Shown here: one piece after another, positions 10,035-19,540 of the stretch
Layout of the letters: each line of letters begins with the position of its first letter
Position numbering within the stretch: the stretch's first letter is position 1
Program-made: the position numbers and the translations under genes
The notes under the pieces: model-generated
What the model was told of the DNA's origin: nothing
Databases searched by the model: none
What the model saw: the letters and a program-made list of their open reading frames with translations, nothing else
Origin: an uncultured delta proteobacterium
Lineage (GTDB): Bacteria > Myxococcota_A > Polyangia > Polyangiales > Polyangiaceae
Assembly (NCBI GenBank): GCA_963782055.1
Contig: CAWAIF010000002.1
Location: forward strand, 128,001-192,000
Reading direction: 5' to 3'
Length of the DNA: 64,000 nucleotides

Positions 10035-11648
10035 TCAGGACGCGCCGAGGTACAGCTTGAGCGCCTGCGCGGCGCCCCGGCGATCGAACGGCACGTCGGC
10101 GATCTCCTCGCGCTTGCCGATCTGCTCGAGCAGCCCGGTCAAGAACACGTGAAACTGCTCGCACTCGGCGATGGCGCGCTCCAGCCTGTCCGGCTGCAGC
10201 AGGTCGGTCTCCTCGAGCGCGGACATCGCGCCCATGAAGGCGTCGAAGCGCGGGTAGTCGGCGGCGCGCAGCAGCGGGTAGCCCATCGCCCGGAAGTAGG
10301 AGAGAAACTCGCGCACGAACTGGAGCGGCGGCACGCCCGTCCAGCGCACCTCCCCGGTGCGCGTGGACCGCGCCTTGTGCGCGAACGCCCGGACGATCTG
10401 CGCGAACATCCACACGTCCCGCCTTAACCGCTCCGAGAGCAGCCGGCGGGCGGCCGCGTCGTCGAACACGCCCTGCTCGTCCAGGCGCACCCCCAGCGAC
10501 TTGCCGAGGAAGAGGATGCCGTTCTGCAGCGCCGGCCGCAGGTTCTTGACCGCCCGGGCGACGGCGGTGCGCACCTGCTCCGGCGGCGGCCCGAGCTCCG
10601 GCGCGGGGAAGTCGTGCTCGAAGGCGCGCCGCATCTCCAGCCGCAGGTTGGCGCCGATGCCCTCCAGCGAGGCCTTCATCTCCAGCAGGCGATGGCCCTC
10701 GGCCAGCAGGGAGTCGTAGCGCCGGGCGAGCTGCGAGGCGGGGACCGCCAGCACGTCCTTGTCGTAGCCCTCGGCGAGGACGTCCCCGGCGCGGTGTCGC
10801 AGGTACGTCGTCAGCGCGCGCGCGTCGGAGCGCAGCACGCTGAGCACGACGTACACCACCCCCGCGCTGCGGCGCGGGCCTTCGTGCGCCGTCTGGAGCG
10901 TCGTCTCCAGCAGCGACAGGTAGCGGAGCATCCGGAAGAGCGCGAGGAAGGTGAGCGCCACCAGTCGCCGCGCGTGCTCCCCGGGCACGCTGCGCATCAG
11001 CTCGAGGACGCGCGGGTTGCCGATGCGATCGAACTCCGGCCGGAACTCCAGCGCGCGCAGCGGGTTGAAGTACGCCGACTGCGCGACCTCCCGCTGGCCG
11101 ACGCCCATGACCGCGTAAAAGAGCCGGAAGGGCACCCGCGGCAGGCGCGCCACACCCGACGCCACCTCCAGAAGGTTGGTCATGCCGTGGCGCAGGTAGA
11201 AGAGCGACTCCTCCGGCGTGTCCTGCGCCGTCGCCCCGTGCACCAGCCGCGAGCGCACCGCGTCGTCGGGCAGCACCGTCTCCAGGTAGCGCTGGAACAC
11301 GAAGGCGCGATCGCGCTCGAACAGCAGGCCGCGGCAGAGGGTGGTGATGCGCCCCATCGCCTCCCGCCCCAGCGCCAGCGCCTCCCGGAAGTCCTGCGCC
11401 ACCACCGGCGGACGCCGCGTGGGGCCGGGGTGGTTTCGCGGGTTGGCGAAGCACGCCAGGCCCTTGAGCAAGATCTCCAGCTCGAAGAGCTGGTCCTCGC
11501 GTCGCGCGGCGGCGAGCCGGTTCACCCACTGCTCGCGGAGCTGCGCTTTGTCCTGCTCCAGGCTGCGCGTCTCGCGCAGCAGGTCGGTGTAGGCGTCGCG
11601 CTCGCCCGCGCTCGGAACCACGGATCGAGGAGGAGCCAGCGAAGGCAC
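10035..11648 (-). CDS. Uncharacterised all-helical protein (~537 aa)
   Basis: C-terminal part of ORF 10035..12737 with normal protein composition (LFELEILLKGLACFANPRNHPG). GTG start is inferred. Confidence 0.7.
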   Translation of the reverse strand: MPSLAPPRSVVPSAGERDAYTDLLRETRSLEQDKAQLREQWVNRLAAARREDQLFELEILLKGLACFANPRNHPGPTRRPPVVAQDFREALALGREAMGRITTLCRGLLFERDRAFVFQRYLETVLPDDAVRSRLVHGATAQDTPEESLFYLRHGMTNLLEVASGVARLPRVPFRLFYAVMGVGQREVAQSAYFNPLRALEFRPEFDRIGNPRVLELMRSVPGEHARRLVALTFLALFRMLRYLSLLETTLQTAHEGPRRSAGVVYVVLSVLRSDARALTTYLRHRAGDVLAEGYDKDVLAVPASQLARRYDSLLAEGHRLLEMKASLEGIGANLRLEMRRAFEHDFPAPELGPPPEQVRTAVARAVKNLRPALQNGILFLGKSLGVRLDEQGVFDDAAARRLLSERLRRDVWMFAQIVRAFAHKARSTRTGEVRWTGVPPLQFVREFLSYFRAMGYPLLRAADYPRFDAFMGAMSALEETDLLQPDRLERAIAECEQFHVFLTGLLEQIGKREEIADVPFDRRGAAQALKLYLGAS

Positions 11649-11701: not shown

Positions 11702-12532
11702 TTACCGCGTCGCCCGCCGCTTCTTCGGCGCGGGCGGCAGCAGCGTGTCCAGCTTGCCCACCCTGTCCCCGAGCAGCTTGGCCATGACGCCCTCCACCGG
11801 GCGCCCGGTGCGCTGCGCGAGCAGGGTGATGTCCAGCGCGATCTGACTCGTCGCCACCTCGGCGATGGCGGCCGTCTCGCTCACCACCGCCGCGTCCCCT
11901 TCGACCTTCTCCGTCGCGCCGATGAGCGTCGTCCGGTCGTCCGCCACCACCATCAGCCGGTGCTTCCAGAACGCCTCGAGCGAGGCCTCCGGCAGCTCGT
12001 AGCTGAAGACCTCCCCCGGGAGCTTGGGCAGCGCGCAGTGCGAGAAGACCACCAGGTACGCGCCCCGCTTGGCCGCCCGCCGCAGCTCGGCGGCGAGGGT
12101 GTCCACCTCTCGCGCCCAGCCGCTCACCGCAAGCCGCGTGCTCGCCCCGCGGATGATGCGCTCCGCCTCCTCCAGGATGCGGTCGTAGCCCCGCACGCTG
12201 AACGCATCCGGCGTCGGCGGAGCCGTGTCCAGGCGGCGGATCGCCTCGGAGAGGTTGTCCGCCGACCCGTCGAAGCGCTTGCGCAGCAGCGACAGCAGGT
12301 CCTCCGGCGGCGCAGCCGCGAAGCGCTCCGGCGAGCCGGAGATGGCCCGCGCCGCGCCCGCCTTCACCAGCCGGCGAAGTACGCCGTACACCGCCGACCG
12401 CGGGATCTGCGCCCGCACGCCCACCTCGTAGCCCGTCGCCGGGCTGTCCACGAGCAACGCCGCGTATGCCCGCGACTCGTTGAGGCTGAAACCCAGCGCC
12501 TCCAGAGAAGAAACGATGTCCGCGCCGCCCAC
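11702..12532 (-). CDS. TrmB-family transcriptional regulator
   Basis: LEALGFSLNESRAYAALL...ATGYEV...IPRSAVYGVLRRLVKAG wHTH, followed by a PLD-like effector domain. Confidence 0.88.
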   Translation of the reverse strand: MGGADIVSSLEALGFSLNESRAYAALLVDSPATGYEVGVRAQIPRSAVYGVLRRLVKAGAARAISGSPERFAAAPPEDLLSLLRKRFDGSADNLSEAIRRLDTAPPTPDAFSVRGYDRILEEAERIIRGASTRLAVSGWAREVDTLAAELRRAAKRGAYLVVFSHCALPKLPGEVFSYELPEASLEAFWKHRLMVVADDRTTLIGATEKVEGDAAVVSETAAIAEVATSQIALDITLLAQRTGRPVEGVMAKLLGDRVGKLDTLLPPAPKKRRATR

Positions 12533-12737
12533 GCCTGCGATCTACACGTATCCGGGGTCGCCCGCACCTCTCCCGGAGGGGGGCCGGGGCCGGAGGAGTC
12601 TTTTTTGTCCCATCCGGGGCGAAACCCTTTGTACCCTGGCGGGCGCAGAGCGTGAGGCCCTCGATGTCGAGGCTACCGCACGAGCCACAACATCCTTGGG
12701 CACACCATGCACCAGGGGAGGACAGGGAGAGACGCAC

Positions 12738-12992
12738 ATGAAGATCGGAAAGACCCTCGCTGTGACGGCCGCTTCGGGACTGCTGCTGGGCCTCATGGCA
12801 GGCTGCGGTGGTGACAACGCTTCGAGCGGCGGCGCTGCGACCCCGTCGGGCGGCGACATGGCTGCTCCGGCGGACAGCTCTGGCGGCGGCGCGAAGGCGA
12901 GCTGCAGCGGCGCCGGCGGTGGCGCGGCTCCGGCCGACACTGGCAGCGCGGCTGGTGGCGAGGCGACCCCTCCCCCCGCTCCCGCTCAGTGA
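12738..12992 (+). CDS. 84-aa lipoprotein-like peptide; candidate MNIO RiPP precursor
   Basis: GGAGA RBS; MKIGKTLAVTAASGLLLGLMAGC lipobox; Gly/Ala/Ser-rich body with one further Cys (AKASCSG); lies directly upstream of DUF692. Confidence 0.75.
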   Translation: MKIGKTLAVTAASGLLLGLMAGCGGDNASSGGAATPSGGDMAAPADSSGGGAKASCSGAGGGAAPADTGSAAGGEATPPPAPAQ

Positions 12993-13047
12993 CCTGCTGA
13001 ACCCCCTGGCCGCGGTCGTCCTCTCGGACGGAGGCGGCGCGGGTGGG

Positions 13048-13096
13048 GCAAGGACGCCGCGGCCACCTTTCGGTGCCGCGGCGTTCGTGCTTTTGT
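13048..13096 (+). terminator. Intergenic stem-loop / leaky intrinsic terminator between precursor and MNIO genes
   Basis: GGACGCCGCGG-C-CACC-tttc-GGTG-CCGCGGCGTTC followed by GTGCTTTTGT. Confidence 0.6.
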
Positions 13097-13108
13097 GACC
13101 AGACGTCC

Positions 13109-13966
13109 ATGGGTTTTCGCGACAAGCACGGCATCGTGGACCTGGGCGTCGGCGTCGGGTTCCGTCCCAAGCACGCGGCCGACGTCCTGGAGCGCGGCGG
13201 CTCGCCCGAGGTGGCCTGGTACGAGATCGTCAGCGAGAACTTCATGGGCTCCGGCGGCCGGCCGCGCGCCCAGCTGGAGCGGCTCCGCGCGGCTTACCCC
13301 GTCGTGCCGCACGGCGTGTCCCTCTCGGTGGGCTCGGTCGCCCCACTCGACCGCGAGTACCTGGAGCGTCTCGCCGCGCTCGTGCGGCACGTCGACCCGC
13401 CCTACTTCACCGACCACCTCTGCTTCTGCCGCGCGGGCGGCCTCGACCTGCACGATCTCTTGCCGCTGCCTCTCACCCCCGAGGCCGCCGCGCACACCGC
13501 GGCGCGGGCGCGGGAAGTCCAGGACAGGATCGGCAGACCCTTCGCGATCGAGAACGCCTCGAGCTACCTCGCCTACCGCGAGAGCTCCATGCCGGAGTGG
13601 GAGTTCCTCGCCGAGATCGCCGAGCGCGCCGACATCGGCATCCTGCTGGACGTGAACAACGTCTTCGTGACCGCGCACAACCTGGACTTCGATCCGGCCG
13701 CCTACATCGACGCGATCCCCGCCGACCGCGTGGTGCAGATCCACCTCGCCGGCCACACCGACAAGGGCAGCTACCTGCTCGACACCCACTCCGATCACGT
13801 GCGCGAGGAGGTGTGGGCCCTCTACGAGCGGGCGATCCGCCGCATCGGGCCGGTCAGCACCCTCATCGAGTGGGACGAGCGCATCCCCAGCTTCGACGTG
13901 CTCGCGCGAGAGGCCGCCCTCGCCGCCGAGCACCGCGCGAAGGCCCTCGCGGAGGCCGGGCGATGA
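13109..13966 (+). CDS. DUF692 / multinuclear non-heme iron-dependent oxidative enzyme (MNIO, MbnB/TglH/BufB family)
   Basis: GVGFRPKH, EIVSENF, HGVSLS, TDHLCF, HDLLPLP, IENASSY, LLDVNN, QIHLAGH, DTH, LIEWD. Confidence 0.95.
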   Translation: MGFRDKHGIVDLGVGVGFRPKHAADVLERGGSPEVAWYEIVSENFMGSGGRPRAQLERLRAAYPVVPHGVSLSVGSVAPLDREYLERLAALVRHVDPPYFTDHLCFCRAGGLDLHDLLPLPLTPEAAAHTAARAREVQDRIGRPFAIENASSYLAYRESSMPEWEFLAEIAERADIGILLDVNNVFVTAHNLDFDPAAYIDAIPADRVVQIHLAGHTDKGSYLLDTHSDHVREEVWALYERAIRRIGPVSTLIEWDERIPSFDVLAREAALAAEHRAKALAEAGR

Positions 13967-14766
13967 GCCGCCTCGACGAGACGCAGCGCCTCTTCGCCGA
14001 GGCCCTCCTCCACCGCCAGACGCTCGCCGAGGATGGCGCGCTCTCCGCCCGCGCGGAGGCGACCGCCGCCGGCAGCTCGCGCATGACGCCCACCGAGCAG
14101 CTCGACGTCTACCGCGAGCAGTTCTGGCTGCGTCATGTCGCCTGCCTGGCGGAGGACTACCCCGTCGTCGAGGCGCTGGTCGGGAAGGCCCCCTTCGAGG
14201 ATCTGGTGGCGGCCTACCTCGACGCCCACCCCCCGCAGCGCTTCCTCATCCGCGATCTCGGCCAGGACCTCGCGTCCTTCCTGGCGCGCACACCGCCCTG
14301 GAAAGAGGACGCGCTGCTCACCGACGTCGCCCGGGTGGAGTGGGCGTTCGTGGACGCCTTCGACGCCCCCGACGCGCCGCCCCTCGACCCGGCCTCGATC
14401 GCCGGCATCGGCGAGGACGACTGGCCGCGGGCGCGGCTGGTGCTCCACCCGTCCTTGCAGCGGCTGCAGCTCCAGCACCCCGCGCACGAGCTGCGGGTCG
14501 CGCACCGGGCGGGCCAGCCCGTCGTGCGTCCCCGGCCCGCCCCGGCGGCCGTGGTGGTCTACCGCCGCGAGCTGGGCACCTACCAGGAGATCGTCGATCG
14601 CCGCGCGCTCGCGCTGCTCGACCTCCTCGCGGCGGGCGAGCGCCTCGGCGACGCCGGCGAGCGCGTCGCGGCCGAGAGCGGTGGCGGCGACGCGGTGGAG
14701 GCCAGCATCGGCGACTGGTTCGCCCGCTGGGCCGCCCTCGGGTGGATCAGCCGCGTCGAGGTCTGA
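13963..14766 (+). CDS. DUF2063-type MNIO partner protein (HvfC/BufC-like, RRE-like N-terminus)
   Basis: ATGA overlap with MNIO; QLDVYREQFWLRHVACLAEDYP, YLDAHPP, DVARVEWA, LHPSL. Confidence 0.88.
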   Translation: MSRLDETQRLFAEALLHRQTLAEDGALSARAEATAAGSSRMTPTEQLDVYREQFWLRHVACLAEDYPVVEALVGKAPFEDLVAAYLDAHPPQRFLIRDLGQDLASFLARTPPWKEDALLTDVARVEWAFVDAFDAPDAPPLDPASIAGIGEDDWPRARLVLHPSLQRLQLQHPAHELRVAHRAGQPVVRPRPAPAAVVVYRRELGTYQEIVDRRALALLDLLAAGERLGDAGERVAAESGGGDAVEASIGDWFARWAALGWISRVEV

Positions 14767-17689: not shown

Positions 17690-18058
17690 CTACTCTTCCC
17701 CGTCGTCCAAGCCGTGGCTGGATGTCGGAGCCCCGCCCAGCATGGACGGGACTCCTACGGGGGGAGCAGCCTTGGGAGCCGCTTTGGTGCCGCCGGTAGT
17801 ACGCCTGCCGGCGGCCCGGCCAGGGCCGGTCTTGGCCTTTGAAGCAGCCTTCTTTTTGGCAGGCTTCTTTTTGGCGGCCTTCTTTTTGGCAGGCTTCTTT
17901 TTAGCAGCCTTCTTTTTGGAGGCTTTTTTGGCACCCTTCTTCGCAGACTTCTTCTTGGCCGTGCGCTTGGCGGACTTCTTCTTCGCCGTCTTGCCAGCGG
18001 CCTTCTTGGTGGTCTTCGTCTTCTTGGGAGCCTTCTTCGCAGACTTCTTAGCAGCCAT
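17690..18058 (-). CDS. Histone H1-like Lys/Ala-rich nucleoid protein
   Basis: MAAKKSAKKAPKKTKTTKKAAGK...(KKKAA/KKKPA)n; GGAGGG RBS; own promoter and terminator. Confidence 0.8.
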   Translation of the reverse strand: MAAKKSAKKAPKKTKTTKKAAGKTAKKKSAKRTAKKKSAKKGAKKASKKKAAKKKPAKKKAAKKKPAKKKAASKAKTGPGRAAGRRTTGGTKAAPKAAPPVGVPSMLGGAPTSSHGLDDGEE

Positions 18059-18399: not shown

Positions 18400-18785
18400 C
18401 GAGTGGAAGAGGGAGCTCGAGCGAGCGGGAGAGGGAGCGCGGGGGCGAGCGCGGGCGCGGGGGCGGGAGTGGAGAGGGAGCGCGGGGGCGAGCGCGGGCG
18501 GGAGAGGGAGCGCGGGGGCGAGCGCGGGCGCGGGGGCGGGAGTGGAGAGGGAGCGCGGGGGCGAGTGCGGGCGAGAGGGAGAGGGAGCGCGGGCGCGGGG
18601 GCGGGAGTGGAAAAGGGAGCGCGGGGGCGAGCGCGGGCGCGAGAGTGGAGAGGGAGCGCGAGGGCGAGCGCGGGCGCGAGAATGGAGAGGGAGCGCGGGC
18701 GCGAGAGTGGAGAGGGAGCGCGATCGCGGGCGCGAGAGTGGAGAGGGAGCGCGATCGCGGGCGCGAGAGTGGAGAGGGAGAGGGG
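18400..18785. repeat. Purine/G-rich degenerate tandem array, core GGAGAGGGAGCGCG (~12 copies)
   Basis: Read directly; the right end has exact 31-bp units GCGAGAGTGGAGAGGGAGCGCGATCGCGGGC. Confidence 0.9.
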
Positions 18786-18913
18786 GTCGCTCGGGGGAGG
18801 GCATCGTCCCGCCGTGCTCGAAGTCCGCAAGGCCGGGCGGTGCTCGTGTCGCTCGCCTTCGTGGTCGGGTGAGCGCAGGCGCGAGGCCGTGACCGAAGGG
18901 CGCGAGCGACGCG

Positions 18914-19267
18914 TCACCGGGTGAGGCCGGTGAGCAGCGCCACGAGCCAATCCGCGATCCGCACGCACCGCTCCGCCGGAGCGGCGTCCGCCTCGCCGGT
19001 GGCCGCGGCGATCTCCACCGCCGCCACCGCCTCGACCGCCTCGCCCCGCGCGATGGCGAACGCCCGCGCCTTGTCCCGCCGCGTCACCCGTCCCGCGCCC
19101 TCCGTCGCGTTCAGGCACGCGCTCTTCGCGGCGCGCATCGCCTCGTCGCGCAGCTTCGCGTCGCGCACACCAGCCGCCCGCACCGCGACGAGCAGCTCCA
19201 CCGCGCCCCGAAAGGCCACCAGCTTGTGATGAGGAAGAGAGCGAGGGGTCGTGTCTTGGTCGGTCAT
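18914..19267 (-). CDS. Four-helix-bundle protein (23S rRNA IVS protein / Avd-like family)
   Basis: HHKLVAFRGAVEL...LRDEAMRAAKSACLNATEGAGR...DKARAFAIARGEAVE matches the family pattern (L.D Q..RA..S...N.AEG.GR...F..ARGS..E). Confidence 0.85.
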   Translation of the reverse strand: MTDQDTTPRSLPHHKLVAFRGAVELLVAVRAAGVRDAKLRDEAMRAAKSACLNATEGAGRVTRRDKARAFAIARGEAVEAVAAVEIAAATGEADAAPAERCVRIADWLVALLTGLTR

Positions 19268-19385
19268 GCCCCCCATCGCGCGGCATGCGTGACAGCGCGA
19301 TCCGTCCCTCTCGCCCCACCCTCGCGCCAGCGCTGGCGTGCATGGTGCGCGCAAAGGCGTGACCGACCAAGACACGACCCCGCGC
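19241..19385. repeat. 30-bp inverted repeat (19241-19270 / 19356-19385) with 85-bp spacer
   Basis: GCGAGGGGTCGTGTCTTGGTCGGTCATGCC vs GGCGTGACCGACCAAGACACGACCCCGCGC: 28/30 complementary, perfect 22-bp core. Confidence 0.92.
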
Positions 19386-19430
19386 GCCCGCCCATCCCCA
19401 CGCGCGGCGAGCATGTCCCCCCGAGTTCAC

Positions 19431-19540
19431 CCCCCCCCGACCCCAACCCCAACCCCGACCCCGACCCCGACCCCGACCCCAACCCCGACCCGACCCCAAC
19501 CCCGACCCCGACCCCAACCCCGACCCCGACCCCGACCCGA
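19431..19540. repeat. Hexamer microsatellite (CCC[G/A]AC)n, ~18 copies
   Basis: Read directly; the minus strand is (GGGGTC/GGGGTT)n. Confidence 0.92.

Follow-up and report, generated by a model that had tools for sequence, protein, structure and literature searches.

A probable lipidated captophorin cluster with a single core cysteine in an uncultured member of the Polyangiaceae

The window analyzed here is a stretch of 64,000 nucleotides (contig CAWAIF010000002.1 of assembly GCA_963782055.1, positions 128,001 to 192,000) from an uncultured delta proteobacterium of the Polyangiaceae. It contains three consecutive genes which encode a small peptide with a lipoprotein signal, an oxidative enzyme that depends on multinuclear non-heme iron (MNIO, DUF692) and a DUF2063 partner. 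Judged from the sequence, these genes are probably a real and intact cluster for a lipidated captophorin, i.e. a bufferin-type member of the lipidated peptides made by ribosomes and modified after translation (DAG-RiPPs), with a minimal precursor and stress-induced expression. The peptide was initially annotated as the lipidated substrate of the enzyme, and this is very likely: a lipobox peptide is kept upstream in relatives, its lipobox Cys is invariant in the 34 aligned rows (34/34), and K53 and C56 are at least 90% conserved. On balance we favour a membrane-tethered captophorin which carries one 5-thiooxazole and binds copper only between molecules.

Translation of the open reading frame (ORF) confirmed the annotated peptide of 84 aa, with Cys only at position 23 (lipobox) and position 56, in a core rich in Gly, Ala, Ser and Pro. 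Its N-terminus follows the signal pattern of DAG-RiPPs (K2, K5, uncharged residues 6-22, lipobox Cys23), and a signal-bearing precursor immediately 5' of the MNIO gene is the arrangement of captophorins of the bufferin type. No Pfam or NCBIfam model matches the peptide at E<=0.1. Neither the EGKCG repeats of oxazolins (Buf_EGKCG) nor the CPxCGxG motif of chryseobasins is found in it, and it falls outside the Buf1 (DUF2282) and Buf2 (6/12 Cys) bufferin precursors, having neither a family model match nor the 4/6 conserved Cys; a six-Cys relative which shares the leader scores 42 on NF050166 (cut-off 60). In 4 of 4 runs of soil RNA libraries, contigs extend across the peptide gene without a single difference or gap (spans 12659-13031, 12699-13031 and 12715-13027). 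Because these contigs match the gene letter for letter, the single core Cys is real, and an assembly error behind the one-Cys allele is excluded. The runs fall under 2 study codes, two apparently being one data set, and possibly come from the source sample. They were selected via the peptide gene and their contigs reveal neither level, strand nor ends of a transcript, the cover being a weak hint that the peptide gene is expressed; for the MNIO and partner genes, the four runs gave nothing beyond short loose-ended pieces, which is no real cover. The core Cys had also been described as the centre of a mirrored linker. The mirrored arrangement is present, but barely above chance: in 5000 shuffles, the longest shared word (5 aa) has p=0.084 and the shared 3-mers p=0.028. 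As a designed feature the mirror is weak, its left half being common with two-Cys relatives while its right half replaces their second repeat; the mirrored look arises because the second repeat was overwritten by an APADT stretch similar to that which precedes the first.

The DUF692 and DUF2063 genes follow in the annotated order and are coupled, the start of the second overlapping the end of the first by ATGA. The MNIO belongs to the BufB/HvfB group, with 345 bits on Pfam PF05114 and 335.7 on NCBIfam MNIO_BufB NF050167 (cut-off 310). It scores 247 on the HvfB model (cut-off 360) and 47 on the ChrH model (cut-off 600), and no other MNIO model of the NCBIfam scan reaches its cut-off. All conserved residues are present (H68, H103, E148, D181, N184, H212, D225, H227, E254, D256), and the His, Asp, Glu and Asn residues align with those of 3BWW, D256 corresponding to the Asp of the ERD of 3BWW. 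By comparison with MbnB and TglH, these residues would be the iron ligands. D256 is also the counterpart of the catalytic Asp249 described for FonB (PMC13097082). Glu257 stands at the position equivalent to the substrate-selecting Phe250 of FonB, but this position does not separate the precursor types, E and D being found with both (repeat type, 23 E and 12 D; Buf2 type, 29 E and 83 D). The enzyme retains 54 of the 55 near-invariant positions of 157 homologues. Its sole deviation, H192L (codon 13682-13684), affects a His present in 155 of the 157 and gives the Leu of TglH; a damaged enzyme was not retained as an explanation, since 38 of the 157 homologues likewise miss at least one such position. 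The partner scores 70.7 on PF09836 (cut-off 27.2) and matches the HvfC model weakly (42 bits over residues 42-258, cut-off 142); a C-terminal RiPP recognition element was looked for, and a comparison with PDB sequences gave no match. By these comparisons, both enzyme genes are intact.

Genome, family and metagenome searches yielded 211 loci with a near-full MNIO match, of which 161 were non-identical and had a called upstream peptide (L059, a wrong ORF call, was excluded from the tree and from the alignment of the enzymes; L181 and L110 were assigned to their class manually). Homologous loci retain a lipobox peptide: one lies upstream of the MNIO in 66 of the 161 loci, and in 12 of the 12 closest ones (67-73% MNIO identity), which include all four genomes of the same genus. 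The closest named loci are from Polyangiaceae. In forty of the 66 precursors, a Gly/Ala/Ser/Pro/Thr linker holds KxSC[SNG]G units, which defines the repeat type. A single core Cys is not a trait of this family: 38 of the 40 have a core with several modifiable Cys (20 precursors with two, 11 with three, 6 with four and 1 with five), and one is found in 2, the window peptide and that of locus L126, these counts including kin that are not independent. From the 8000 best candidates, a profile search retrieved 76 homologous proteins; they all lack Pfam domains, and those with a taxon name are from Polyangiaceae. They have one core Cys in 4 cases (the L126 peptide, P0034, P0077, P0079), two in 47, three in 23, four in 1 and six in 1. 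One group (P0072/P0077/P0079) keeps a single C-terminal Cys across diverged sequences. An independent one-Cys precursor was seen at L254:1961-3176 (genome G010), with its Cys four residues from the C-terminus; the MNIO that follows is intact and long-branched, and no ECF-type promoter (see below) was found there. At L093 and L094, tandem lipobox precursors (four and two core Cys) precede one MNIO. On a quick IQ-TREE tree of the MNIO (89 of 159 rows, signal-peptidase-I-type rows thinned), the starred branches force at least 3 label changes between repeat-type and Buf2-type precursors. Because the two types interleave on this tree and share a leader, we infer that the repeat type and the lipidated Buf2 bufferins form one lineage with a variable core. 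The lipobox peptides with one to five KxSCxG repeats are an unnamed Polyangiaceae family without a Pfam or NCBIfam model. A literature search covering few subscription papers found no study of the KxSCxG family or of one-Cys captophorins; the supplements of PMC13056109 may list the family.

Could the peptide be an ordinary small lipoprotein, the MNIO substrate being encoded elsewhere? The lack of any family model match to the peptide speaks for this, but the order peptide-MNIO-partner is kept across relatives with a conserved core Cys, and a profile search of the genome gave only one other peptide of this type, itself the Buf2-like precursor of another MNIO cluster. We consider this explanation the least probable of all.

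The region upstream of the peptide gene contains a conserved promoter (Table 1) of the extracytoplasmic function (ECF) sigma type, with a layout common to the cassettes of relatives and to the orthologues of an ECF sigma/NrsF pair. A scan for the sigma-70 consensus found no promoter there. With a matrix trained without the window site, the window promoter is the best site of the genome (24.4 bits). When the genome was scanned with the three-block matrix, 64 sites reached >=14 bits, the window site alone having an A/T tract of >=5, and this matrix is too specific for mapping the regulon beyond the three MNIO loci and the sigma operon. The one NrsF gene of the genome belongs to an ECF sigma and NrsF anti-sigma pair at G000:C3:2968012-2969351 (L251:2013-3352, + strand). 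Its sigma gene is preceded by a matching layout (-35, 16 nt, -10), which inspection by eye shows to be kept at 28 of 30 orthologous loci. A motif-free search found one spaced word pair before 24 of the 30 sigma orthologues, compared to no more than 12 in shuffles; among the precursors, 9 of 22 are preceded by the top pair, compared to no more than 7 in shuffles, and trmB-only regions gave none above shuffles. Of the 29 genomes whose cassettes are closest, 28 have an NrsF match (weak in two), vs 110 of 201 overall. Because the promoter of the cluster matches that of the sigma/NrsF pair, control in trans by a SigF-like ECF sigma is likely. The pair is likely the master switch of the MNIO clusters of the genome and is apparently autoregulated; the promoter layout also precedes two other MNIO precursors of the genome, with a lower score. 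As annotated, no DoxX, ECF or protease gene is found among the neighbours in family-model scans. A missing adjacent ECF pair need not imply that ECF control is missing too, and the cluster is probably not unregulated, since a sigma/NrsF pair elsewhere shares the promoter. Each element of the promoter is one base off the Caulobacter SigF consensus as published (GTAACC-N16-CGAA, PMC3511200), and SigF/NrsF is reported to control buf1 and buf2 in Caulobacter (PMC11626156). The cassette promoters also have an A-/T-tract and an inner TAnnnT hexamer (12601-12637 in the window), not evident before the sigma genes, which possibly represent a second promoter or the site of a second regulator.

The divergent neighbour of the cluster encodes a TrmB-family regulator, and control by this protein would link the cluster to the sensing of sugars or nutrients. 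In 21 of the 30 best family loci, whose intergenic regions share a motif, trmB and the precursor gene stand head-to-head, and a TrmB-family gene is matched in 72 of 201 family genomes. We nevertheless find such control very unlikely. Of 40 further trmB loci, picked as not known to be MNIO-linked, 37 have neither MNIO nor promoter in the 1.1-3.3 kb inspected upstream, and several cassette-free loci retain the flanking lipoprotein and kinase genes. Conversely, among 22 cassettes that lack trmB, the promoter precedes 10 at >=12 bits and four more by eye (12 of the 22 score <12 bits), and the promoter of the cluster matches that of the ECF sigma itself. The cassette-free trmB loci and the promoter before trmB-less cassettes led us to reject TrmB as the regulator and to regard it as a syntenic bystander. 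Distant trmB orthologues adjoin, by eye, genes for apparent sugar-binding or glycoside-active proteins.

Table 1. Features of the cluster and of its upstream region (window coordinates).
Feature	Position	Strand	Basis
TrmB-family regulator, divergent neighbour	11702..12532	-	Pfam; judged syntenic bystander
Conserved promoter region	12601..12647	+	Common layout before relatives' cassettes and ECF sigma/NrsF orthologues
Promoter parts: T-tract; ECF-type -35 hexamer; inner hexamer; -10 tetramer	12601-12606; 12621-12626; 12632-12637; 12644-12647
Precursor peptide, 84 aa, signal peptide 1-22	12738..12992	+	ORF reading, alignment
Lipobox Cys23 (LMAG-C) codon	12804-12806	+	Within precursor ORF
Core Cys56 codon, one KxSCxG repeat (AKAS-C-SG)	12903-12905	+	Within precursor ORF
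Two RNA hairpins (13002-13047; 13048-13090 with U tail)	13002..13097	+	Folding z -3.73
MNIO (DUF692), BufB type, 285 aa	13109..13966	+	Pfam PF05114, NCBIfam NF050167
DUF2063 partner (PME type 1, BufC-like), 267 aa	13963..14766	+	PF09836

The genome contains three more MNIO genes, two of them with multi-Cys lipobox precursors. The second cluster (G000:C3:1686930-1688849, L252) has a lipobox six-Cys precursor of the Buf2 type and a matching promoter layout with an A-tract; a DoxX gene lies ~2 kb upstream on the other strand (away from the window cluster, the genome has 4 DoxX matches, one of them ~2 kb from an MNIO cluster). The third (G000:C3, about 4695200-4697400, - strand) has a long lipobox precursor with three ASCG repeats and one more Cys, and a matching promoter layout. 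The fourth (G000:C3:4774878-4776550, - strand, L253, MNIO at 4775777-4776550) has a partner gene, and no small upstream precursor could be assigned to it; a Cys-rich ORF of the opposite strand ends just past the partner.

The terminator-like hairpin annotated after the peptide gene proved on folding to be two hairpins, the second followed by four U, and none of 200 shuffles (0/200) folds as well as this gap between peptide and MNIO. A simple terminator scan gave 1 short site vs 0.9 expected by chance. The hairpins likely form a partial terminator which favours the precursor transcript.

We propose the following sequence of events. As the promoter identity suggests, envelope metal or oxidant stress would free the SigF-like ECF sigma from its NrsF anti-sigma, and the freed sigma, encoded elsewhere, would turn on the operon of the window together with at least two more that encode an MNIO. 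The hairpins would then give far more precursor than enzyme. By family, the cytoplasmic BufB/BufC pair is expected to turn Cys56 into a 5-thiooxazole (-4 Da): all characterised MNIO-PME1 pairs are reported to install this group, and the residue after Cys56 is small, the kind that FonBC prefers at this position (PMC13097082). By the signal pattern, Sec, Lgt, LspA and Lnt would remove residues 1-22 and lipidate Cys23, and Gly at +2 predicts no inner-membrane retention. The last step is the least sure: copper may be held between two tethered peptides, or between the window peptide and the multi-Cys lipidated precursors of other MNIO clusters. In bufferin 1, a single copper is described as bound through 2 N and 2 S (PMC11626156); because one thiooxazole is half of such a 2N2S site, binding would occur between molecules. 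Oligomeric metal binding by a one-Cys peptide is plausible. EGKCG captophorins aggregate with Cu, which their authors ascribe to intermolecular coordination (PMC13097082), and in single Cys-to-Ser mutants of BufA1 the remaining Cys is still modified (PMC11626156).

Several observations weigh against a working one-Cys captophorin for copper. None of the 12 closest loci has the one-Cys form (0/12), each encoding 2-3 core Cys, and in the window peptide the second repeat of close relatives is swapped in register for the copy-like APADT stretch, a replacement which looks like loss. The -10 element of the window is one base off the form of nearly all relatives, with a spacer of 17. The other one-Cys repeat-type locus, L126, lacks the promoter (score -1.8), and its genome (83% complete) gave no NrsF match. 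SigF/NrsF systems are reported to answer chromium (PMC3511200) and chlorine (PMC4436054) stress as well, copper thus not being singled out, and no copper genes were found among the scanned neighbours of the cluster. The single-Cys mutants of BufA1 are reported to give weaker copper protection (PMC11626156), and FonBC modified a two-repeat substrate in vitro and left one-repeat FonA unmodified (PMC13097082).

Forms with a single Cys are in the minority, and the one in the window could represent either a functional minimum or a loss. If it is a loss, the window carries a decayed allele: a two-repeat ancestor would have lost its second KxSC by local overwrite, leaving a product poorly modified or poor as a chelator, and tolerated as the genome has other lipidated MNIO precursors. 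The in-register replacement, the absence of one-Cys forms from the closest loci, the changed -10 base, the behaviour of one-repeat FonA and the multi-Cys lipobox precursors of the other MNIO clusters all agree with such decay. It is the main rival to our reading, yet we hold it to be rather unlikely, as the MNIO and its partner are intact with an ordinary 1/55 deviation, one-Cys forms exist in other lineages, including the P0072/P0077/P0079 group with its C-terminal Cys kept despite divergence, and RNA-library contigs cover the peptide gene, which is a weak hint.

The same regulatory data bear on another reading, in which the modified, lipidated peptide would be a sacrificial thiol for envelope oxidants or for soft metals other than copper, a role for which a single reactive thiol per peptide suffices. 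NrsF systems respond to chromium (PMC3511200), and a hypochlorite response of such a system is described as acting via a sacrificial periplasmic peptide (PMC4436054). The thiols of 5-thiooxazoles are reported to be reactive to alkylation (PMC13097082), and precursors have anywhere between 1 and 5 repeats, a free variation that would suit sites working independently. However, the captophorins characterised so far generally bind Cu (PMC13097082), and no reductase gene was seen among the neighbours of the cluster in family-model scans. We judge this reading improbable.

Returning to intermolecular copper binding, a possible and tentative extension is that one-Cys precursors, having arisen more than once, are a working minimal design, in which the membrane brings at least two single-thiooxazole peptides together into a copper site, possibly mixing the products of several co-regulated MNIO clusters, so that a two-dimensional coat which traps metal would form. 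If true, the window peptide would be the smallest natural captophorin and would offer a direct test of intermolecular chelation. As the class is known, the gain is modest. The family, with its one to five repeats, is a natural series in which to ask whether two sites are required for the enzymes to act and whether a copper ion is coordinated by one peptide or by several. In addition, the promoter match points to a likely envelope stress regulon of the SigF/NrsF type in Polyangiaceae.

Other genes of the window were noted in passing. Downstream of trmB, 10035-11531 (- strand) encodes a product of ~450-500 aa without a Pfam match; several relatives have a counterpart with 61-71% identity over 416-457 aa. 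An ORF of 122 aa at 17690-18058 (- strand), rich in Lys and Ala and with 15-base repeats, has no Pfam match; its make-up is histone-H1-like. A 23S_rRNA_IVP (four-helix bundle) gene at 18914-19414 (- strand) is flanked by degenerate tandem repeats of periods 6 to 73, within 18421-19538.

The initial annotation considered the layout unlike that of described clusters; published systems do not support novelty of the layout or of the lipidation. Captophorins are defined as the 5-thiooxazole RiPPs of MNIO-PME1 pairs, and include bufferins, oxazolin, fontiphorin and gonophorin (PMC13097082). The window cluster resembles them in the order precursor-MNIO-DUF2063, the BufB-type enzyme and the short repeat around Cys, and fonABC likewise has three genes; it differs from them in its single core Cys and its KxSC[SNG]G repeat, which has neither Lys-Cys nor Cys-Lys (PMC13097082). 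The table of Cys-rich ORFs in the same source lists, without comment, at least two lipobox KASC-type relatives (the peptides of L129 and L117), and at least five lipobox relatives of the Buf2 type. Lipidation is also known: DAG-RiPPs (2026) include lipidated bufferins and oxazolins, and for DybA and NedA, the only two for which the source reports both lipidation and MNIO modification as demonstrated, a signal-peptidase-II signal and a lipobox Cys precede the modified core, as they do before the predicted modification site of the window (PMC13056109). Unlike these, which have CPxCGxG with a ChrH-type enzyme (DybA) or three EGKCG repeats (NedA), the window peptide has one KASCSG (PMC13056109). 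Another publication predicts ~16% of Buf2 precursors to be lipoproteins and reports that ORFs with a signal and 1 to 18 Cys exist by the hundreds without an assignment; in its genome table, two Sorangium rows and a Labilithrix row have 2-6 MNIOs and no assigned precursor (PMC12452194). The layout is also close to that of buf2ABC of Caulobacter vibrioides, with three genes, no DoxX and SigF/NrsF control from another locus, the latter being predicted for the window (PMC11626156). Lipobox Buf2-type precursors of related Polyangiaceae hold the position of the window precursor, whose low-complexity core, with one Cys and no NF050166 match, is unlike BufA2, a folded six-Cys periplasmic peptide with a disulfide (PMC11626156). 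As in the SigF/NrsF regulon of Caulobacter, the ECF sigma gene is followed by that of an NrsF-family anti-sigma; unlike there, the pair is myxobacterial and its regulon partly mapped (PMC3511200). The kind of system, its lipidation and its layout are thus already known, and what is unusual is the single core Cys, compared to two or more in close relatives.

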